A stretch of 19,832 nucleotides of DNA from Leptospirales bacterium (GCA_040326155.1 JBEQLE010000073.1:1-19832), one strand, 5' to 3'. Shown: positions 10,154-19,832, numbered from the stretch's first letter. The notes: generated by a model from the letters alone, not told the origin. Translations and numbers: made by a program.

Positions 10154-11305
10154 ATGAAATTTATATTACCAAAATCCACTTTAGAAAAAGCAATGGCTCA
10201 GATTGACGCTATCGTTCCCGGACGAGACACGCAGACTCTGCTATCGAATGTTTTATTAGGTATTGAAAAAGACAGGGTTCGTATTACCGCTTCAGATATG
10301 GAAAGTACTGTAAGAATCAGTATTGACGCTGAAGATACGGAACCGGGCGAATTGATCGTTCGCGCTAAAAAACTTTCCGAGATAGCTCGCCAGATTAATT
10401 CGGAAAAAGTTGTTTTTTCCAGTGAAATCGACGAAGAAGCGGAGGGGTCTGATGAGGGGGCAGTGCACCGAGTGCGCCTCGAAGGCAGTGGCAAAATGGC
10501 TGCCAAGTTCAGAATGGCCGGTTCTGATCGGTCTCACTTTCCTGAGATGACCGAAATCAGTTCAGATAAGCTATCAAAAGTTCCGGCTGACATACTTTCC
10601 GAGATGATCGCTAAAACGGTCTATTCTATCTCTCAAGAAGATAATCGCTATATATATAATGGACTCTATTTTCTAGCTGACGGTAATAAACTTACTATTG
10701 TTGGCACCGATGGACGGCGCCTGGCCGCTGTTTCTCGAACCGTTCCCGAACCCATCAGTATTGGCTCTGCCGAAGCGGGTGATATTGTTGTTCATGCCAA
10801 AGCAATACGTGAACTTGTTAAAATTATGGAAAGTGGTGAAGATGTTTCGATCGGTGTCGAACAAAGAGATGTTTTTTTTCAAGTCGACCAGGCCGAACTG
10901 TCCAGCCGTTTATTAGAAGGCAAATTTCCCGATTACAAAAAAGTTATACCGGGAACATCGGAAATTGATTTTGAAATTAACCGGGCCGATTTAAGCGACG
11001 CTATTCGCCAGGTTATGGTGATGACGGAGCAGCCATCTTACCAGGTTCGATTGTCGTTAAGTGCAGGCGGGGTTGAGCTTAGCGCAAATACTCCTGATGT
11101 AGGAGAGGCTGAAATAATGCTTCCGGTCGAAGGTCTTGACCAGGAACTTGTAATCGGTTTCAACGCTAATTATTTAATGGATATTCTAAAGAACCTCGAT
11201 TGTGAAATGGTGCGTTTGAAGTTTATTGACCCGGCTAAACCAATTGTTGTTGAAGATACGGGGGATGACCAATTCGTATCGCTGGTTATGCCCATGAAAA
11301 TTTAG
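10154..11305 (+). CDS. dnaN: DNA polymerase III subunit beta (sliding clamp)
   Basis: LLSNVLL, ASDME, GTDGRRLA, SRLLEGKFPDYKKVIP, IGFNANYLMDIL and C-terminal LVMPMKI. Confidence 0.97.
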   Translation: MKFILPKSTLEKAMAQIDAIVPGRDTQTLLSNVLLGIEKDRVRITASDMESTVRISIDAEDTEPGELIVRAKKLSEIARQINSEKVVFSSEIDEEAEGSDEGAVHRVRLEGSGKMAAKFRMAGSDRSHFPEMTEISSDKLSKVPADILSEMIAKTVYSISQEDNRYIYNGLYFLADGNKLTIVGTDGRRLAAVSRTVPEPISIGSAEAGDIVVHAKAIRELVKIMESGEDVSIGVEQRDVFFQVDQAELSSRLLEGKFPDYKKVIPGTSEIDFEINRADLSDAIRQVMVMTEQPSYQVRLSLSAGGVELSANTPDVGEAEIMLPVEGLDQELVIGFNANYLMDILKNLDCEMVRLKFIDPAKPIVVEDTGDDQFVSLVMPMKI

Positions 11306-11306
11306 T

Positions 11307-12470
11307 ATGCCGGACAGTTATTTTCCCGTTAGTTTACGAAAAATCACTCTAAGAAGCTTCCGAAAATACGAAAAACTTACAATTGACTTAAATGCTCCTG
11401 TGGTTATGATCACCGGAAGAAACGGTAGCGGTAAGACTACTATTTTAGAAGCTATTTCTATGGTCAGCTCTTTGCGATCTTTTCGCAGGGCTTCAGATAA
11501 AGAACTCATCGCCTGGGAAAAAAATTATTACTCTCTTGAGCTGGAATATAAAGGGACCGAAGGTGTTGAGGTCTTAAAAATGGGGTATGGTAAAGCGGAG
11601 AAAAACAGTCCGACAATGCGAACCATGGTTGTAAATGGGAGCAGGGTAAAAAAAATATCCGAATTTCTCGGTCGTTTTCAAACTGTTGTATTTTCCCCCG
11701 AAGATTTAAAAATTATCGAAGGTCCGCCCGCAGAGAGGCGTAAATATATCGATATGGTTCTTTCGCTTCTTTCTCCCGGTTACTTAGATACCCTGCAAAA
11801 ATACCGTAAAGCTTTAGAAATGCGCGGTGCCATTTTAAAAAAAAGGGGAAGCCAGTCCTATGTTTCTTCCATTGACCGAGAACTTGCCGAGTATGGGAGT
11901 CGTATACAATTGGCCAGGGTCGATTTTATTCAAGAGTTTCGAAAACCTTTTTTTGAATATATTGATAAAATTTCCGGCGGTGAGGACCAATGGAATTTAG
12001 CATACGTACCATCCATTGCAGGTGGCGATCAAAAAGAGGTCTATTTTAATACATTACAGCAATCGTATACCAGAGATATTCGGTATAAGCAAACTATGAA
12101 TGGAATTCACCGAGACAGGTTTATCATTCACCTGCCCGACGCTGCCGAAAAAGAAATTCGAATTGTTGCCTCTCAGGGCCAAAAACGGACCGCTGCTCTA
12201 GCCATGCGAATGGCCCAATATCGACATACCCAGGAAAAAACTCACGAAACACCCGTTATTTTAATCGATGATGTTTTAACCGAACTCGATACCCACAGAA
12301 GAAACGGTTTTATTCGATTCATGAACGATGTTGGTCAGGCTCTAATTACGTTGACCGATACCAGCGGAATTCAAGACTATATAACCGCCGGAGATGGTAT
12401 TCAAAACATGCTGGTCTACGAAACCGGCGAAAGTTCCGGTCAAATTCAGTTGCAAGCGATTAAGCCGTAA
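11307..12470 (+). CDS. recF: DNA replication/repair protein RecF
   Basis: Walker A GRNGSGKTT, VVFSPEDL..I.GPPAERRKYID, SQGQKR, Walker B ILIDDVLTELD. Directly follows dnaN. Confidence 0.96.
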   Translation: MPDSYFPVSLRKITLRSFRKYEKLTIDLNAPVVMITGRNGSGKTTILEAISMVSSLRSFRRASDKELIAWEKNYYSLELEYKGTEGVEVLKMGYGKAEKNSPTMRTMVVNGSRVKKISEFLGRFQTVVFSPEDLKIIEGPPAERRKYIDMVLSLLSPGYLDTLQKYRKALEMRGAILKKRGSQSYVSSIDRELAEYGSRIQLARVDFIQEFRKPFFEYIDKISGGEDQWNLAYVPSIAGGDQKEVYFNTLQQSYTRDIRYKQTMNGIHRDRFIIHLPDAAEKEIRIVASQGQKRTAALAMRMAQYRHTQEKTHETPVILIDDVLTELDTHRRNGFIRFMNDVGQALITLTDTSGIQDYITAGDGIQNMLVYETGESSGQIQLQAIKP

Positions 12471-13535: not shown

Positions 13536-13901
13536 AAAATCGAGTAGTTATTTAATTATTGTTTTTATAAGCTTCGCGTTTTTCATACTGATCCGGCCAA
13601 AGAAAACACAATCTTTGCAGAAGGTTTTATCTCGACATTTCTTACAAACAATTTTCTTATCCGAAGCTATGCGAAATTAGCGACTTAAAGAAAAAGATAA
13701 TATGGAAAATAGAATGAAAAGAGGAAATTGCCGCAAAACAAAGGAAAATCGAGGCTGGTGAGAATGGTGCCGATCTGGAAAGGACTTATTCTACGGTCTT
13801 GTTAGGCGATGTGCTAGATAAGATATCATAGAGAAGTACAAAAATATCAATAAAAATTAAAAAGTTATTGCAATATTGATCATTCATTGTAAGATTGATA
13901 C

Positions 13902-15779
13902 ATGTCATCAAAAGTTGGGAAAGTAAATAAAGTTTCAGACTCTACAAAAAATAATGCTACTAACACAAAAATATCTTCCGGAACTACTACTACTAATCAT
14001 CATCATGTAAACAATAATAGTAATTCGGTTTCCAATCAACCGCTTGTTTCTGGAAGCAGCAGGACACAATTATTACTGCAATTACAGAGAACGCATGGTA
14101 ATCAATTTGTAGGGCAAGTGATAAAATCGGGAATTTTACAAAAAAAATGTTCGAGTTGTCAAAACGATTTTATTGGCTTAAGATTAGAAGGGATGCATCT
14201 TCGCACTCTGTCTCTTTGTCGAACATGTGAAGGAAAGAACCTGATCAAGAGTTTACAAAAAAATGAAATACGAAAGACAGGTGTACCTGAAGAGGAACCG
14301 CAAGCAAAACTCACTCAGCGATCTGATATTAAAGAAGAAGAGCCACAGGCAAAGTCTATCCAAAGGGTAGAACCAGAAGAGGGTGAACCTCAAACTAAAA
14401 TGAGTATGGGCGCCCCCGGTGATGTTTACGAAAAAGAGGCCGACTCTGTCGCAGAACAGGTTTCCGCATTTTATAACTCGGATAATCTTGCCCAGAGGGT
14501 GATCTCCCGCCTCAATGTTCCCAAAGTTCTTGGGCTAGGCAACAAAACTACCACTATTTCCCGGATTTCGACCTCGCCAAGAAGAGCATCAATATTTGCA
14601 CATTATGAGTCAGGTGGAGGAGGTACGGTCGCCCCTTCCGTCGAAAACCGGATTATGCAGAGCAAAGGAAGTGGTTCTCCTTTGCCATCTTCCATTCGCA
14701 ATGTGATGGCCTTGCGTACCGGACATGACTTCAGTAGCGTGCGCGTGAAAACCGGCTCCGAAGCCGAAACTCTGAACACGAAACTGGGGGCCAGGGCTTT
14801 TACCCATGGTTCCGACATCTGGATGGGGAAGGGTGAAAGCACAAATGACGTTAAGCTGATGTCCCATGAGTTGACCCACGTTGTGCAGCAAGGCGCAGCC
14901 AAAAGGGTCAGCCCACAAAGCATCATCGGCCTGAGCGGTATGAAAACGTCCGACAAGGTACTCGGGGCTTTGCAAGCCATGGCGAATGGCCAGGGCAAAG
15001 CAGGGGCTCTTTACGCAAAAGAGATCATGCAATTTCAAGAAGAGAACTCGCCACAAAGCATTCAGACCCTTCAAAGTCAGATTATGCCGCAATCGAAGCA
15101 GGTATCAATTAACCAGAAGAGTGATTCAAGCACCTTAAGGGCTTGTTCGCGTAACGAGCCTGCGGCTATTACAAATTTTTCTACAGGTGATATACTGGGG
15201 GTTAAAAGCGGTAATTCTGAAGGGTGGATACGCGGGAAATTAAATTCAGCAAGTGGACCAACTACCGACTTTCCGGATTATCTAAAAGTTCGATATAAAG
15301 AGAATCGTGGCGGACGGGATTATTTCGATATTCTCGAAGGACAACATATTGGAAAAGTAGGGACATTATTACCCGGGTATTTGGAAACAAAAAGCTGGGG
15401 TGGTTCCGTTTCATTACAATTTAATGAAAATCGAACGACGTCGACATCACTTCAAAGTAGAGGTGTTCTAAATTATGGTGCGGGTACTGTAGAAGCAAAA
15501 ATATTTGTAGCCGGTGGCACCAATAAAATTTCACCAAACAGAAACTATAACCTTGCTTTACCAGATTATCCACATTCTGGAGGAAGTAGTTATGGAGATT
15601 ATGCCAAAACGTGGTTTCGTATTATCGGAGGCCCGCAGGGTGATGAATACTTACATCGGGGGGATCGTTCTGCTGGATGTGTAAGTGTTGCGTCTAATTG
15701 GCCCCAAATCTATAGATATCTTATAAATAAACGCAATGGAACACAAAATATTGGAACGATAAGAAGGATGATTACTTGA
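13902..15779 (+). CDS. DUF4157 (eCIS core domain) protein with C-terminal Tlde1/L,D-transpeptidase-like domain; putative polymorphic toxin
   Basis: LQLQRTHGNQFV, GAPGDVYEKEADSVAEQV, GSPLP...GHDFSSVRV...ARAFTHGSDI...HELTHVVQQ (DUF4157, about 14667-14892). C-terminal YLHRGDRSAGCVSV (HxGxxSxGC) at about 15648-15689. Confidence 0.88.
   Translation: MSSKVGKVNKVSDSTKNNATNTKISSGTTTTNHHHVNNNSNSVSNQPLVSGSSRTQLLLQLQRTHGNQFVGQVIKSGILQKKCSSCQNDFIGLRLEGMHLRTLSLCRTCEGKNLIKSLQKNEIRKTGVPEEEPQAKLTQRSDIKEEEPQAKSIQRVEPEEGEPQTKMSMGAPGDVYEKEADSVAEQVSAFYNSDNLAQRVISRLNVPKVLGLGNKTTTISRISTSPRRASIFAHYESGGGGTVAPSVENRIMQSKGSGSPLPSSIRNVMALRTGHDFSSVRVKTGSEAETLNTKLGARAFTHGSDIWMGKGESTNDVKLMSHELTHVVQQGAAKRVSPQSIIGLSGMKTSDKVLGALQAMANGQGKAGALYAKEIMQFQEENSPQSIQTLQSQIMPQSKQVSINQKSDSSTLRACSRNEPAAITNFSTGDILGVKSGNSEGWIRGKLNSASGPTTDFPDYLKVRYKENRGGRDYFDILEGQHIGKVGTLLPGYLETKSWGGSVSLQFNENRTTSTSLQSRGVLNYGAGTVEAKIFVAGGTNKISPNRNYNLALPDYPHSGGSSYGDYAKTWFRIIGGPQGDEYLHRGDRSAGCVSVASNWPQIYRYLINKRNGTQNIGTIRRMIT
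14290..14400 (+). repeat. Three intragenic EEEPQAK-type repeats
   Basis: EEEPQAKLTQR / EEEPQAKSIQR / EEGEPQTK in the linker before DUF4157. Confidence 0.75.
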
Positions 15780-15859: not shown

Positions 15860-16345
15860 CTAAATATCGGATATTTCCGCAATAACATAAAAGTATGGAA
15901 TTTGTGGCCACTCTTCACGTTTTTTTAATTCTGTATCTTCTGAAAACATGGAGACCTGAAAGACAAGGGAACTTCCGTCTTTAAAAAATTGGCTGTCAGC
16001 AAATAAACCTTTTTTACCATTTTTTACCTCCCATCCGCAACAAAGATATATCAGGGCTTCCATGTGGTAATTATTGACTAAAAATTTCTCGACTTCTAAA
16101 GCATACTTACCTTGGACTTTGTAAGTTGCCTCATAAATTGTCTGTCCATTTTTACTCGTGCAATCTAAAAATTCCAAATGACCCGGTTTTTGAGCCAGCT
16201 TCTCCAGCACGTCGCCACATTCCAGTCCTAAAGTATTTTGAGTTTTTAAATTCGATTTTGATTTACAGTAATATAAACCAATGAATGAGATCGACATAAG
16301 CAATAATATCACATAAAGTTGATTTCTCTTTTTTAATTTAATCAT
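15860..16345 (-). CDS. DUF4952-like protein, probable lipoprotein
   Basis: Spirochaete-type signal ending IGLYYC. CGDVL...KPGHLEFLDC...ATYKVQG...LCCGWE...VSMFSED...WPQIPYFYV pattern recalled for DUF4952. Confidence 0.75.
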   Translation of the reverse strand: MIKLKKRNQLYVILLLMSISFIGLYYCKSKSNLKTQNTLGLECGDVLEKLAQKPGHLEFLDCTSKNGQTIYEATYKVQGKYALEVEKFLVNNYHMEALIYLCCGWEVKNGKKGLFADSQFFKDGSSLVFQVSMFSEDTELKKREEWPQIPYFYVIAEISDI

Positions 16346-16580: not shown

Positions 16581-17561
16581 ATGAACGAATCCGAAACAAG
16601 CGATATACTTTACCCCTGGTTGAAAAGTAGCTACCCTAGAATTCAAGAGGTGATTGAAACTTCTGTTCCAAAAGACTGGCCGGGAATCCGGCATGCTGTT
16701 GCTGGATTATTAGAAGGGGATTTACCAACAGAGACAGTTTTGCCCCTGGCATCTTGTAAGGCAGTCGGGGTAGATCCGAAAGAGGCGACAGAGGTAACGG
16801 CTGCTCTTCTACTCTTTGCCGCCGCCTTAAGACTCTATGATGACGCCGTCGACCAGGACAGGCCGGGAGGTCTATGGGAACAGGTCGGGTCGGCCCGTGC
16901 GTCGAACTATGCAACAGTCGTACACACTCTTGTTTACAATGTTTTGAGTAAGGCCAAATTGTCGGAAGACAAATACCGAGCACTGAATATATTTTTTACT
17001 GATGCTTATATCAATATCGCCGCCGGGCAAGACAAAGATCTTGCCGGTGACACGAAAACCGTTGAGGAGTATTGGCTGACAATTGAATTGAAGTCAGGCT
17101 GGTCTTATGCGCTTGGTTGTGCATGTGGAGGTTTGGTGGGAAGCGATGAGCCAGAGCTAATTGAAAGTTGCCACATGTATGGGTATCACCTTGGTTTGGC
17201 CAAACAAATCATGAATGACTATGAATCAGTATGGACTCCTGATGATATATCTGATTTTCAACAAGGTAAAACTACATTACCTTTGATCTATGGACTCAAC
17301 TACGACCACCCGGCCAAAGGGGAATTGCTTTCGTATGTAAATGAAAATAGTGTTCAGAAGCATGAAAAAAGAATCGGAGAGATTCTAGACTCTATCGACA
17401 CGAAACAATTTCTCATATGGGCGGCTCTAAAAGAACGTGAGGCGGCTTTAGAAGCTCTGGAGCCTTGTCCCGATGTGGAAGGAAAAAAAGCTCTGTTTGC
17501 TTATATTACAGGTATGTTTGGTGACATTGATAAATTGTTGGATAAAACCAACAAAGGATAA
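16581..17561 (+). CDS. Class I isoprenoid-synthase-fold prenyltransferase, ComQ-like
   Basis: FARM DDAVD, GQxxDL, KS, second motif QIMNDYES, GKTTLP. Lacks the GKxxR and RRG IPP-binding motifs. Confidence 0.85.
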   Translation: MNESETSDILYPWLKSSYPRIQEVIETSVPKDWPGIRHAVAGLLEGDLPTETVLPLASCKAVGVDPKEATEVTAALLLFAAALRLYDDAVDQDRPGGLWEQVGSARASNYATVVHTLVYNVLSKAKLSEDKYRALNIFFTDAYINIAAGQDKDLAGDTKTVEEYWLTIELKSGWSYALGCACGGLVGSDEPELIESCHMYGYHLGLAKQIMNDYESVWTPDDISDFQQGKTTLPLIYGLNYDHPAKGELLSYVNENSVQKHEKRIGEILDSIDTKQFLIWAALKEREAALEALEPCPDVEGKKALFAYITGMFGDIDKLLDKTNKG

Positions 17562-17640
17562 TTAGCATAGTATGTATTAGTAAAGATATTTTAAAAATTA
17601 CATAATAGTGAGAAGAAAATTCTGAAAAACCATCGAGCAT

Positions 17641-17890
17641 ATCGTATAACGTGTTGAGATTATCTGACGTGGGAATCCGGTCGTAGCCAGCCAGACGAAC
17701 AAAAAATAAACCTCCCGTTTATTGCGAGCTCTGGCGGTTAAGCGTAGACCGGATTTCCATGTGGTCGAACAATTACTTTAATTAATTATGAGAGAAATAC
17801 TTGGGATCATATATCTATGCTCCGAAAAATATCATTGTTCGACCCGAACGCCCGAAAAGGGCGTGAGCAGATCAATCTCTGTTATCGGAT
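17641..17890. repeat. 250-nt attC-like multi-hairpin (cloverleaf) element
   Basis: Outer arms atcgtataac/gttatcggat (8/10) and gagattatctg/cagatcaatctc enclose three hairpins at 17669-17760, 17763-17844 and 17848-17864. Confidence 0.75.
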
Positions 17891-17893
17891 GTA

Positions 17894-19832
17894 GTGTGCC
17901 ACGAACGTGCGACGAGAGAAGTTTCTGAAAGACGTTAGTCTTTCCCGCACGGTGCTGTTTAGAAGATGAGGGTGGGCCCCTCGAAACCGGCCTACAGGGG
18001 ATGGTTTCAAATCACCTTAAGCTGCTTTGGTAAAGAGCCATGGTAGTGAGCGTTAAGGAAAAGGCCAACTATATGATTGGTCAGATGAGTGCATGAGAGA
18101 CGAACGCAAGTGAACCACTGATGAAGTGTCGAAAGATAACATAAGGCGTTGTCAAAACCGGGGTGTGTACTTCCGTCCCGGGATAAGTTCGGGAGAAACC
18201 TGTTTACCAAGTGAGCCTTTGGCTCGCATGGTCTAAGGGCCTCAAGTGGCCCCGGGACTGCCCGAGCGGCAACCGGCATGTAGGTGGCGTGAAACATGCA
18301 CAGGCTTCTAAGCGGAACGTGGGAACCTGTCGTGCTGATGAGAAGGGAAAATACCAAGCAAGAAGGACTTGTAAGGTAGAAATACCGAAGCAGTGCATAG
18401 GGGCGGAACAACCCGTAGTAGTGATGAAATTCCTGTAATGGGAATGGAGCGAAGGGGTTGTATGATTCGTTTGATTATGAAAACAACCGGTTTACCGGGA
18501 GGATTTTTATGAGTAGAACAAAGTCGTTTGAGATCGAAAAACAGGCTGTATGGGAAGCTTTTAAATTGGTAAAAGCCAACCGTGGTGCAGCTGGTGTAGA
18601 CGGACAATCTATCCGGCAATTTGAAGAGAAGTTGTCTGACAACTTATACAAACTTTGGAATAGGATGTCATCCGGGAGTTATTTTCCACCTCCGGTAAAG
18701 GCGGTAGAAATACCGAAGAAATCGGGTGGAAAACGGACCCTTGGCATTCCAACAGTCGCAGACAGAACGGCACAAATGGTAGTGAAGATGAAAATCGAAC
18801 CGCTGATTGAGCCGGTATTTCATCATGATTCTTATGGTTATCGTCCTGGCAAATCTGCTAAAGACGCACTGGCTATAACGAGGAAAAGGTGCTGGGAATA
18901 CGACTGGGTATTGGAGTTTGATATAAAAGGACTTTTTGACAACATCGACCATACTCTTTTAATGAAGGCAATTCAAAAACATGTGAAAGAAGAGTGGATT
19001 ATCCTTTACCTGAAAAGGTGGTTAGTTGCTCCTCTATCGAATGTGGACGGGGACCTAGTCGAGAGAAAGCAGGGGACACCGCAGGGCGGAGTCATCAGCC
19101 CTCTTCTGGCGAACCTTTTTCTTCATTATGTTTTTGACCTGTGGATGCAGAGGAATCACCCGCATAATCCATTTGCGCGATATGCGGATGATGGGATTGT
19201 GCATTGCAAAACAGAAAAAGAGGCGTGCGAGATGCGCGATAAAATTGCTTCGAGATTAGTCGAATGTAAGCTTGAAATACACCCCGTGAAAACGAGAATT
19301 GTGTATTGCAGGGATTACAAAAGAACAGGAAAACATTCCTCTAACTCCTTTGACTTTCTAGGGTTTGCGTTTAGACCACGGCGAGCAAAAGGAAAGAAAG
19401 GGAATATTTTCATGGGCTTTTTACCGGCTATCAGTAATGGAGCAAAGAAGTCAATAAAGCAGACAATCCGTAGTTGGAATATTCCAACGCAAACCGCCGG
19501 GACGATTGAAGAACTATCTAAATATTATAACCCGGCCCTCCGGGGCTGGATTAATTACTATGGTTCTTTTTATCCGTCGGAGCTGGCGACTATATACCGG
19601 CACTTCGATCACAAATTAATAATCTGGGCCATGCGAAAATATAAAAGGATGCGGGGGAAATACAAAAAGACCCAAAACTGGTTGATTCGCATTTCGCAGG
19701 CTAATCCGGACCTTTTTCATCATTGGCGGATTGGCCACAAACCCAGCGGTTGGATCATAAGAGCCGTATGAAGTGAGAGTTTCAAGTACGGTTCTGTGAG
19801 AGCCTGCGGGGGAAGTTCCCGCGGGCTACTCG
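17894..19832 (+). mobile_element. Group II intron, bacterial class D (IIB, RmInt1-like); 3' end cut about 2 nt short by the window edge
   Basis: 5' GTGTG at 17894. DI closing stem ccacg 17899-17903 / cgtgg 18318-18322. alpha gcctaca 17990-17996 / alpha' tgtaggt 18279-18285. DV gagccgtatgaagtgagagtttcaagtacggttc 19761-19794. DVI 19798-19832 with bulged A. EBS/IBS pairing supports the 5' boundary. Confidence 0.93.
18509..19771 (+). CDS. ltrA: Group II intron reverse transcriptase/maturase (420 aa, no endonuclease domain)
   Basis: KANRGAAGVDG, RTLGIPTVADR, GTPQGGVISPLLANLFLH, RYADD (YADD at 19181-19192), FDFLGF, X domain LRGWINYYG. GGAGG RBS before ATG 18509. Confidence 0.96.
   Translation: MSRTKSFEIEKQAVWEAFKLVKANRGAAGVDGQSIRQFEEKLSDNLYKLWNRMSSGSYFPPPVKAVEIPKKSGGKRTLGIPTVADRTAQMVVKMKIEPLIEPVFHHDSYGYRPGKSAKDALAITRKRCWEYDWVLEFDIKGLFDNIDHTLLMKAIQKHVKEEWIILYLKRWLVAPLSNVDGDLVERKQGTPQGGVISPLLANLFLHYVFDLWMQRNHPHNPFARYADDGIVHCKTEKEACEMRDKIASRLVECKLEIHPVKTRIVYCRDYKRTGKHSSNSFDFLGFAFRPRRAKGKKGNIFMGFLPAISNGAKKSIKQTIRSWNIPTQTAGTIEELSKYYNPALRGWINYYGSFYPSELATIYRHFDHKLIIWAMRKYKRMRGKYKKTQNWLIRISQANPDLFHHWRIGHKPSGWIIRAV

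Follow-up and report, generated by a model that had tools for sequence, protein, structure and literature searches.

Large branched attC-like elements in a Leptospirales genome as probable integron-like recombination sites linked to a Xer-like tyrosine recombinase

The stretch of DNA analyzed here (the window, 19,832 nucleotides; GCA_040326155.1, contig JBEQLE010000073.1:1-19832) came from a Leptospirales bacterium, whose genome (designated G000) was a fragmented metagenome-assembled genome (MAG) of 4.26 Mb in 171 contigs with 94.7% completeness and with gene calls that were crude picks of open reading frames (ORFs). The downstream part of the window displayed the organization of a solo core, three accessory genes, a large structured element (type-1 element), and a group II intron that was cut by the contig end (Table 1). 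The type-1 element belonged to a multi-copy family in G000 and had relatives in other genomes, and it is probably an integron-like recombination site that serves as a cassette border and as a functional analogue of attC.

Table 1. Features of the window and of related sites in G000 (window positions unless a contig, C, is named; positions preceded by a contig are those of that contig)
Feature	Position	Strand	Basis or remark
Type-1 structured element (probable attC analogue), full extent of family profile	17626..17892	+	nhmmer iteration 2, E 3.7e-63; folds
5' flank GAGCATATCGTA	17635..17646	+	Complementary to 13805-13816, score 9.0/12 (8 Watson-Crick + 2 G-T)
R-box 5' arm TAACG; core conserved across genera, likely crossover region	17647..17651	+	Alignments A1/A3, pair counts, homology break at recombinase-adjacent sites
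Unpaired 3-4-base bulge between R and L boxes, 5' arm only; TGTT here, TTTn in the family	17652..17655	+	
L-box 5' arm gagattatctg, pairing with 17868-17879	17656..17666	+	Fold; whole-helix compensatory replacement across genomes
P2, long hairpin with apical aataaac/gtttatt hairpin and CCTCC-containing loop	17667..17762	+	Fold; helix 4 with 14/16 pairs changed on both sides
P3, 11-bp stem ggtcgaacaat (17763-17773)/attgttcgacc (17834-17844), closing an AT-rich optional interior	17763..17844	+	Fold, alignments
P4, GC-rich hairpin acgccc-gaaaa-gggcgt	17848..17864	+	Fold; helix 7 with 6/7 pairs changed on both sides
L-box 3' arm cagatcaatctc, one bulged base (C17873)	17868..17879	+	Sequence, fold, pair counts
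R-box 3' arm TGTTA	17880..17884	+	Alignments, pair counts
Post-core bases TCGGATGTA, start of the neighboring unit; GTTATCGG..AACGC flank class, truncated by the intron	17885..17893	+	
Group II intron starting 9 bases after GTTA: 5' part, intron-encoded protein ORF, domains D5/D6; cut by contig end	17894..19832	+	Rfam, Pfam, NCBIfam
Solo core TGTTA (13800-13804) plus flank GGCGATGTGCTA (13805-13816), upstream border of the window cassette	13800..13816	+	
Cassette gene 1, 625-aa eCIS_core protein (toxin-like)	13902..15779	+	Pfam PF13699, 1.3e-22; paralogues beside other elements
Cassette gene 2, DUF4952 protein	15860..16345	-	
Cassette gene 3, divergent polyprenyl synthetase-like protein	16581..17561	+	Far below all NCBIfam cut-offs
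Type-2 palindrome sites	C81:13081-13200, C21, C58, C83:4629, C114; window ~13770-13800		
Promoter module, beginning GTTATCGGCAATAAACGC	C7:362, C12:9459, C82:9632, C83:56127, C91:2203, C112:7316, C138:45260		

The minimum-free-energy fold of 17641-17890 was a four-way junction, in which a two-part outer stem split by the bulge enclosed the hairpins P2, P3, and P4. An initial annotation, made from the sequence alone, had described this interval as a cloverleaf with attC-like ends, and all the stems it had named were present in the sequence at the coordinates it gave, including the outer stem of gtataac (17644-17650) with gttatcg (17881-17887) and the P2 stem with its arms gtgggaatccggtc (17669-17682) and gaccggatttccat (17747-17760); the fold of the interval was thereby confirmed, but the family profile extended slightly further on both sides. 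Folding of both strands favored the plus strand: with RNA parameters it reached -91.3 kcal/mol (z -6.65, equaled by 0 of 200 shuffles), compared to -80.6 kcal/mol (z -4.91) for the minus strand, and with DNA parameters the plus strand reached -46.9 kcal/mol (z -5.82). The Rfam run that had been proposed gave no match for the element at gathering scores and nothing credible at E values up to 10 within 17500-18000, and a domain scan of the window proteins agreed with the earlier statement that the window encoded no integrase. A small minus-strand ORF behind the GGAGG of the P2 loop was considered and rejected on inspection, being interrupted by stops in copies with insertions.

A search of G000 by BLAST and then by two rounds of nhmmer gave 91 nhmmer matches, which were merged into 65 loci; 61 of these overlapped no ORF of at least 90 aa, and 21 were located less than 1 kb from a contig end. 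The scan for covarying copies beside variable genes, suggested by the initial annotation, was positive. Full-length copies were 186-309 nt long, and the variation in length came from discrete optional insertions in P2 and from the P3 interior, which was itself optional and was missing from the copies in contigs C67, C104, and C29. Among 16 copies of G000, 91.0% of the alignment cells paired, compared to 31.8-44.7% when the 3' partners were slid by 1-3 columns; both-side changes occurred at 30 of 56 pairs, and the observed values were reached by 0 of 500 shuffles. An alignment of 17 copies from five genomes, which was not fitted to the structure, gave 83.8% paired cells compared to 32.9-47.1% after sliding, and both-side changes at 38 of 56 pairs, these genomes being kin and hence non-independent. 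Across genera, the entire L box was swapped, its pairing being fully compensated, whereas TAACG, TGTTA, and the T-rich 3-4-base bulge of the 5' arm stayed constant. Of 24 copies, 20 had the plus strand as the more stable one under RNA parameters and 22 under DNA parameters.

With one copy as the BLAST query, 4 of 40 related genomes gave matches (3/3 of the same family and 1/2 of another family), all of which were full-length copies by profile search of the fetched loci, and no match was found in the 20 genomes labelled f6 or the 7 labelled f8. This single-copy query missed the diverged versions labelled g11, which were found later via the recombinase (see below), and two BLAST-negative f6 genomes displayed the same element-recombinase architecture; one of these was the distant genome G018, whose 197-nt element (z -8.66) likewise folded into R and L boxes with a TTT bulge and three hairpins inside. 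A fixed 20-base pattern run against genome contigs gave seven single matches in unrelated organisms, which is about chance by estimate. The element was absent from the contigs of three sediment metagenome runs (one study, small shares), which contained only intron-like sequence from 17893 on.

Copies less than 6 kb apart were co-oriented 15:2, with spacings of 0.8-4.1 kb. Flanks of copies, taken as 12 bases preceding TAAC and 12 following GTTA, were compared with permutation P values. The two flanks of one copy were no better matched than random ones (17 pairs, mean 4.1/12 Watson-Crick, P=0.40). Between the post-GTTA flank of one copy and the pre-TAAC flank of the copy that followed downstream, the mean match was 6.1/12 over 8 pairs (P=0.002), and three of these pairs reached 9-10/12, a level of 9 or more being found in only 14 among all 1184 pairings. 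A best-partner scan over 8 kb (12 bases following any GTTA; G-T counted as 0.5; counts at 9 or more made by eye from the rows) found partners of at least 9/12 upstream in 9/30 cases, downstream in 1/25, and on the opposite strand in 2/30, and the corresponding counts at a threshold of 9.5 were 3/28, 1/21, and 0/32. As a rule, the top upstream partner was a solo core or else the preceding element's 3' end, and the complementary flanks of successive copies were 0.6-3.8 kb apart. In the window, the 5' flank of the element paired with the 12 bases directly after the solo TGTTA, and this pairing delimits a unit of ~4 kb with three genes; the DNA upstream of that solo core did not fold (z +1.68). 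By analogy, such a flank pattern is what circularly permuted integron cassettes would leave behind. The signature is symmetric, and it fits an element that travels with its 5'-side genes as well as one that travels with its 3'-side genes.

The most IntI-like protein of each genome belonged to one family of ~350-395 aa (352 aa in G000, contig C12). It matched TIGR02249 in two pieces and skipped profile positions ~181-236, the IntI-specific segment; compared to the VchIntIA/IntI4 structure 2a3v, the candidate had 13 residues in place of the 54 of IntI4. XerC-like and XerA proteins were its best solved relatives, and its homologues, found mostly in Spirochaetota/Leptospiraceae MAGs, were annotated only as generic tyrosine recombinase or XerD. 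A solo core of TAAC type was located ~110-200 bases before the recombinase gene, on the gene's own strand, in G000, G001, G002, and G003. The outer flank of this core matched the element ends of its own genome (GTTATCGGCAATAAACGC vs GTTATCGGCAGTCAACGC in G000 and GTTAGCCGAAATAATCGC vs GTTAGCCGAAGTAAGCGC in G001), while the inner side was conserved between G000 and G002 and was unlike the elements. The homology between solo sites and elements stopped within a few bases after AAC, so the probable place of the crossover is the core or its immediate neighborhood.

Four genomes had arrays or elements immediately upstream of the recombinase gene and on its strand: (i) one element 1.2 kb upstream, with two opposite-strand genes in between, in G001; (ii) two elements 2-3 kb upstream in G009; (iii) a partial element in G012, whose 3'-core flank was complementary to that of the solo site at 13.5/14; and (iv) four tandem 459-bp units (94% matches; L077 1432-3274), each composed of a 197-nt element plus ~260 nt, in G018, ending at a solo CAACGTTT site ~410 bases before the recombinase similarity began, with a flank complementarity of 11.5/14. 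The tandem unit of G018 looks like a duplicated small cassette. The search for a linked tyrosine recombinase, which the initial annotation had called for, thus found a Xer-like gene beside a solo core, but in G000 this gene was on another contig than the window. Contig C12 ended ~40 bases beyond the solo core, within a different multi-copy transposon-like terminus (C12 9493-9561, locus L032; also in C1, C99, C137, C150, and C82), which contained two direct 17-base repeats GACAATTAGAAnTnCCG resembling transposase-binding ends. An ordinary xerD (C106:4906-5805; TIGR02225, 356 bits vs a cut-off of 329.6) preceded a three-element array of the same strand by 1.1 kb, and it may be there by coincidence or be a second candidate catalyst.

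In the proposed mechanism, one strand (plus in the window) would fold into the R box TAACG/TGTTA, a 3-4-base bulge, the L box, and three inner hairpins, the R box being conserved in sequence and the L box, which has one bulged base, only in its pairing, and this folded single strand would be the substrate of recombination. A cassette would be the DNA between two successive cores, and in a circular cassette the bases just after one core would pair with those before the next and so lengthen the outer stem. The likely catalyst would be the Xer-like tyrosine recombinase without the IntI insertion, with the solo core before its gene as the attI analogue, and the crossover would most likely occur in or next to the AAC/GTT core. 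The initial annotation had proposed a longer branched recombination site for an integron-like enzyme; flank complementarity and the recombinase-adjacent solo core speak for such a site, while the candidate recombinase is no IntI. More tentatively, and at somewhat less than even chance, the elements may represent a second kind of integron that is order-wide in Leptospira-class spirochaetes, in which a Xer-like recombinase without the IntI insertion would take up and reshuffle cassettes via single-strand four-way-junction sites of 190-310 nt. In this reading, the branched fold could substitute for the domain that the protein lacks, cassettes with toxins, defence genes, or promoter modules would be seeded at more than 60 chromosomal places and not at a single platform, and the sites would also act as a landing pad for group II introns.

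Several observations weigh against the elements being integron-like sites, and those that would also fit a repeat family or an RNA are given with these alternatives below. The best TIGR02249 score in G000 was 102.7 bits vs a cut-off of 265, and 0 of the 4 element-bearing relatives had a protein over this cut-off. Integrons are defined by IntI plus short attC hairpins, and attC sites are single hairpins of ~57-141 nt, sometimes with a branched tip; unlike these, the elements were four-way junctions of 186-309 nt with a T-rich bulge of 3-4 bases. With neither the IntI insertion nor the size and shape of attC present, the system falls outside integrons on two defining features. Cassette genes were found in both orientations relative to the sites, unlike most integron cassettes. 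Only 3 of the 8 consecutive flank pairs carried a strong signature, several of the 8 reused one degenerate flank, and no flank partner was found beside the recombinase in G019 and G021 (best 8.5 and 7.5 of 14). The array of G000 cannot be joined to its recombinase, given that contig C12 ends in the transposon-like repeat. The degenerate core pattern TGTTA[TG]NNG[AC][AT]G gave 81 matches vs 58 for the reversed control, and it is therefore too loose for the counting of sites, though it did reveal two further body types (see below).

One alternative, which we consider unlikely, is a selfish structured intergenic repeat of the type of miniature inverted-repeat transposable elements (MITEs) and of the ERIC, BOX, and neisserial repeats, with no shuffling of cassettes and with a structure that would matter, if at all, after co-transcription. 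Such a repeat would account for the dispersal over 65 loci among short mosaic modules, with modules of ~100 nt common to the flanks of different copies, for the many loci that were only 5' or 3' halves or lacked the P3 interior, as is typical of selfish repeat families, and for a type-1 copy in which the type-2 hairpin was bordered precisely by ...CTGTT and TGTTA. It would also fit the lack of a gene-orientation bias (element strand vs the upstream gene, 32 same and 26 opposite; vs the downstream gene, 29 and 26) and of a recurrent protein family beside the copies, where the largest cluster had 4 members (eCIS_core proteins). The MITE option had been raised by the initial annotation, and inverted termini were indeed present, but direct target duplications were absent: each flank was the inverted complement of a flank of the neighboring copy and not of its own, which leaves no direct duplication. 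The flank sequences moreover differed between cassettes, which argues against transposase-bound ends and would be intolerable to an end-recognizing transposase. Neither the co-orientation of neighbors (15:2) nor the solo core beside a conserved recombinase in four genomes, with arrays abutting it in four, is expected of a repeat of this kind.

Still less probable is a multi-copy structured RNA, that is, an RNA gene or a cis-acting module (stabilizer, insulator, or processing site) to which the DNA-level patterns would be secondary. Besides the strong covariation, several features that also weigh against a DNA site would fit an RNA: the mean advantage of the plus strand was larger with RNA parameters (7.4 kcal/mol) than with DNA parameters (2.9 kcal/mol); a tandem G-A/A-G mismatch was found in P3 in 14-15 of 16 copies (alignment A1, columns 212-213/288-289), the window copy having Watson-Crick pairs there; and loops were conserved, including the P2 loop with CCTCC (CCUCC in RNA) across genera. 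Several G-T (G-U in RNA) wobbles among the pairs were likewise conserved, and by eye reading of the alignments most copies had a -10-like hexamer TAnnAT that preceded the 3' arm of P3 by a few bases. Against an RNA stand the absence of an Rfam match and of a conserved upstream promoter or downstream terminator, an outward scan of the window copy for both being at background level. The orientation was random to both flanking genes, so about half of the copies would be antisense to their neighbors. An RNA would also leave the flank complementarity of successive copies and the recombinase-adjacent solo cores unexplained.

A non-autonomous derivative of an IS200/IS605-type single-stranded DNA transposon, similar to palindrome-associated transposable elements and possibly with an omega-RNA-like scaffold, is very improbable: the strand-specific structure, the intergenic position without target duplication, and the agreement of orientation with the local GC-skew sign in 26 of 35 scorable loci (a count that overstates the evidence, since clustered copies are not independent) would suit it, but the Y1 transposase PF01797 and the TnpB-type PF07282 had 0 matches in G000 at its completeness of 94.7%, the Rfam HEARO and IS605-type families were unmatched, and the flank signature is not predicted by it.

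Type-1 elements shared their core with at least two further hairpin body types, all ending in TGTTA-K-NN-GA-W-G. The type-2 palindrome was ~115 nt long with arms AGTCTGTAGAATAAGTC... and in type-1 elements was bordered exactly by ...CTGTT and TGTTAGGCG, while a third body type (...TTTGCAACTAAAACATGGAGTC) ended in the same core in contigs C85, C96, C98, and C114. A promoter-bearing module of ~150 nt was present at seven loci before unrelated genes, and it displayed a small hairpin plus TTGACA-N17-TATAAT (by eye); its homology started exactly at GTTATCGG, with unrelated DNA to the left in each case. In C7, C112, and C138, the gene driven by the module was followed by an inverted element with the same 18-base flank.

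The genes between copies were diverse and mostly unannotated. They included those for an OLD/AriA-like ATPase-nuclease, metallo-beta-lactamase-fold and HNH proteins with PADLOC matches, a TetR regulator with a hydrolase, a CAAX protease, HupE/UreJ, a ParA-like ATPase, and proteins with an eCIS_core domain. Four paralogous cassette ORFs for eCIS_core (toxin-like) proteins were identified, namely that of the window, C16:5333-7717, C14:2170-3324, and C100:35933-36259, and several eCIS_core ORFs were preceded by a common leader of ~85 nt, starting with GGAAAGAGCACCTCTT right after the element core. Further upstream in the window, dnaN and recF (10154-12470) were followed by the accessory island; the cumulative GC skew turned at ~2-5 kb, which places the window near a replication origin, and the folded strand of the element was the G-rich strand.

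The group II intron, which began 4 bases past the end of the initially annotated interval, had been missed there. It matched RF01999 (group-II-D1D4-2) at 17968-18085 and RF00029 at 19759-19832, and its ORF (18458-19771) encoded a 437-aa protein with reverse transcriptase and maturase domains and no endonuclease domain. Its 5' end was set by the homology with a paralogous fragment and with metagenome contigs, which began at 17893/17894. The intron had the same sense as the folded strand, and its insertion point was 3 bases past the base of the extended stem. Group IIC-attC introns are class C ribozymes, with a short 5' part, a 3-4-bp intron-binding site 1 (IBS1), and no exon-binding site 2 (EBS2), inserted at TTGT/T of a folded site; the 564-nt part before the ORF and the AGC in D5 argue against class C. 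GATAAC (18135-18140) could pair with GTTATC (17881-17886) as EBS2, a 6-mer among ~650 positions being weak evidence, and no 6-base complement to GATGTA was found in the intron as EBS1. Related intron fragments were present in C97 (aa identity of 92% across the final 104 residues), C111, C70, C73, and C76.

A full-text literature search found no description of such a spirochaete system or of an integron analogue with a Xer-like enzyme. If the elements are integron-like sites as proposed, gene capture of the integron style would be possible without the IntI-specific domain, much larger and branched folded sites would be usable for the capture of cassettes, and such capture would occur in a phylum with hardly any known integrons; current integron searches, which rely on IntI plus short attC sites, would miss the system. 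Since the cassettes carry toxin-like, nuclease, and defence-like genes, it would then be a main route of accessory-gene turnover. The system would also offer a natural test of how tyrosine recombinases recognize folded single strands, and it would be a second case of group II introns homing beside folded recombination sites.

Compared to known systems, the elements resembled the ERIC, BOX, and neisserial mosaic repeats in being multi-copy intergenic imperfect palindromes with optional indels and mosaic neighbors, and differed from them in recombinase linkage, co-orientation in arrays, and flank complementarity of successive copies. The folded attP of CTX-phi and the integrative mobile elements exploiting Xer (IMEX) likewise combine a Xer-family recombinase with a site made by the folding of single-stranded DNA; unlike these, the elements showed on inspection no 11-6-11 site of dif type in the folded stem, were present in many chromosomal copies in cassette arrays, and were associated with no phage. 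A mimicry of dif by the folded R box, which had a 7-base similarity to the XerC arm of Escherichia coli, was considered and dropped for its misfit in spacing. Group IIC-attC introns, as stated in passages of one paper (PMC7923331), insert immediately behind, or within, the stem-loop of the attC bottom strand; the window intron was like them in its lack of an endonuclease domain, its sense relative to the folded strand, and its position immediately 3' of a putative recombination-site stem-loop, and unlike them in being inserted 9 bases after GTTA and not at TTGT/T.

The system differed from integrons in its cassettes, which had genes in both orientations and often contained 1-3 genes with their own promoters, and in having at least three body types on one core and 65 loci genome-wide. 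In canonical integrons, the order of array, attI, and integrase gene is read on the integrase coding strand if the folded strand is equated with the attC bottom strand; likewise, a solo attI-like core was located beside the tyrosine recombinase gene, with the array upstream on its coding strand. This recombinase, unlike IntI, had no IntI-specific insertion and was closest to XerA/XerC-like structures, and a passage of PMC8138268 calls the IntI insertion 'not fully conserved' in a subgroup of integron-like recombinases. Many element clusters had no recombinase nearby, similar to the many attC clusters without a nearby integrase that are named CALINs in the relevant passages of PMC4889954. As in attC, the element was an imperfect palindrome in which only the terminal AAC...GTT was conserved in sequence and the rest as structure, and its R box was separated by an unpaired spacer from its L box, in which one base was extrahelical; of the two strands, one folded better, and for attC only the folded bottom strand recombines, as a passage of PMC7923331 states. 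As in integrons, co-oriented sites separated diverse accessory genes, and the bases after the core belonged to the next cassette and were complementary to that cassette's own site.

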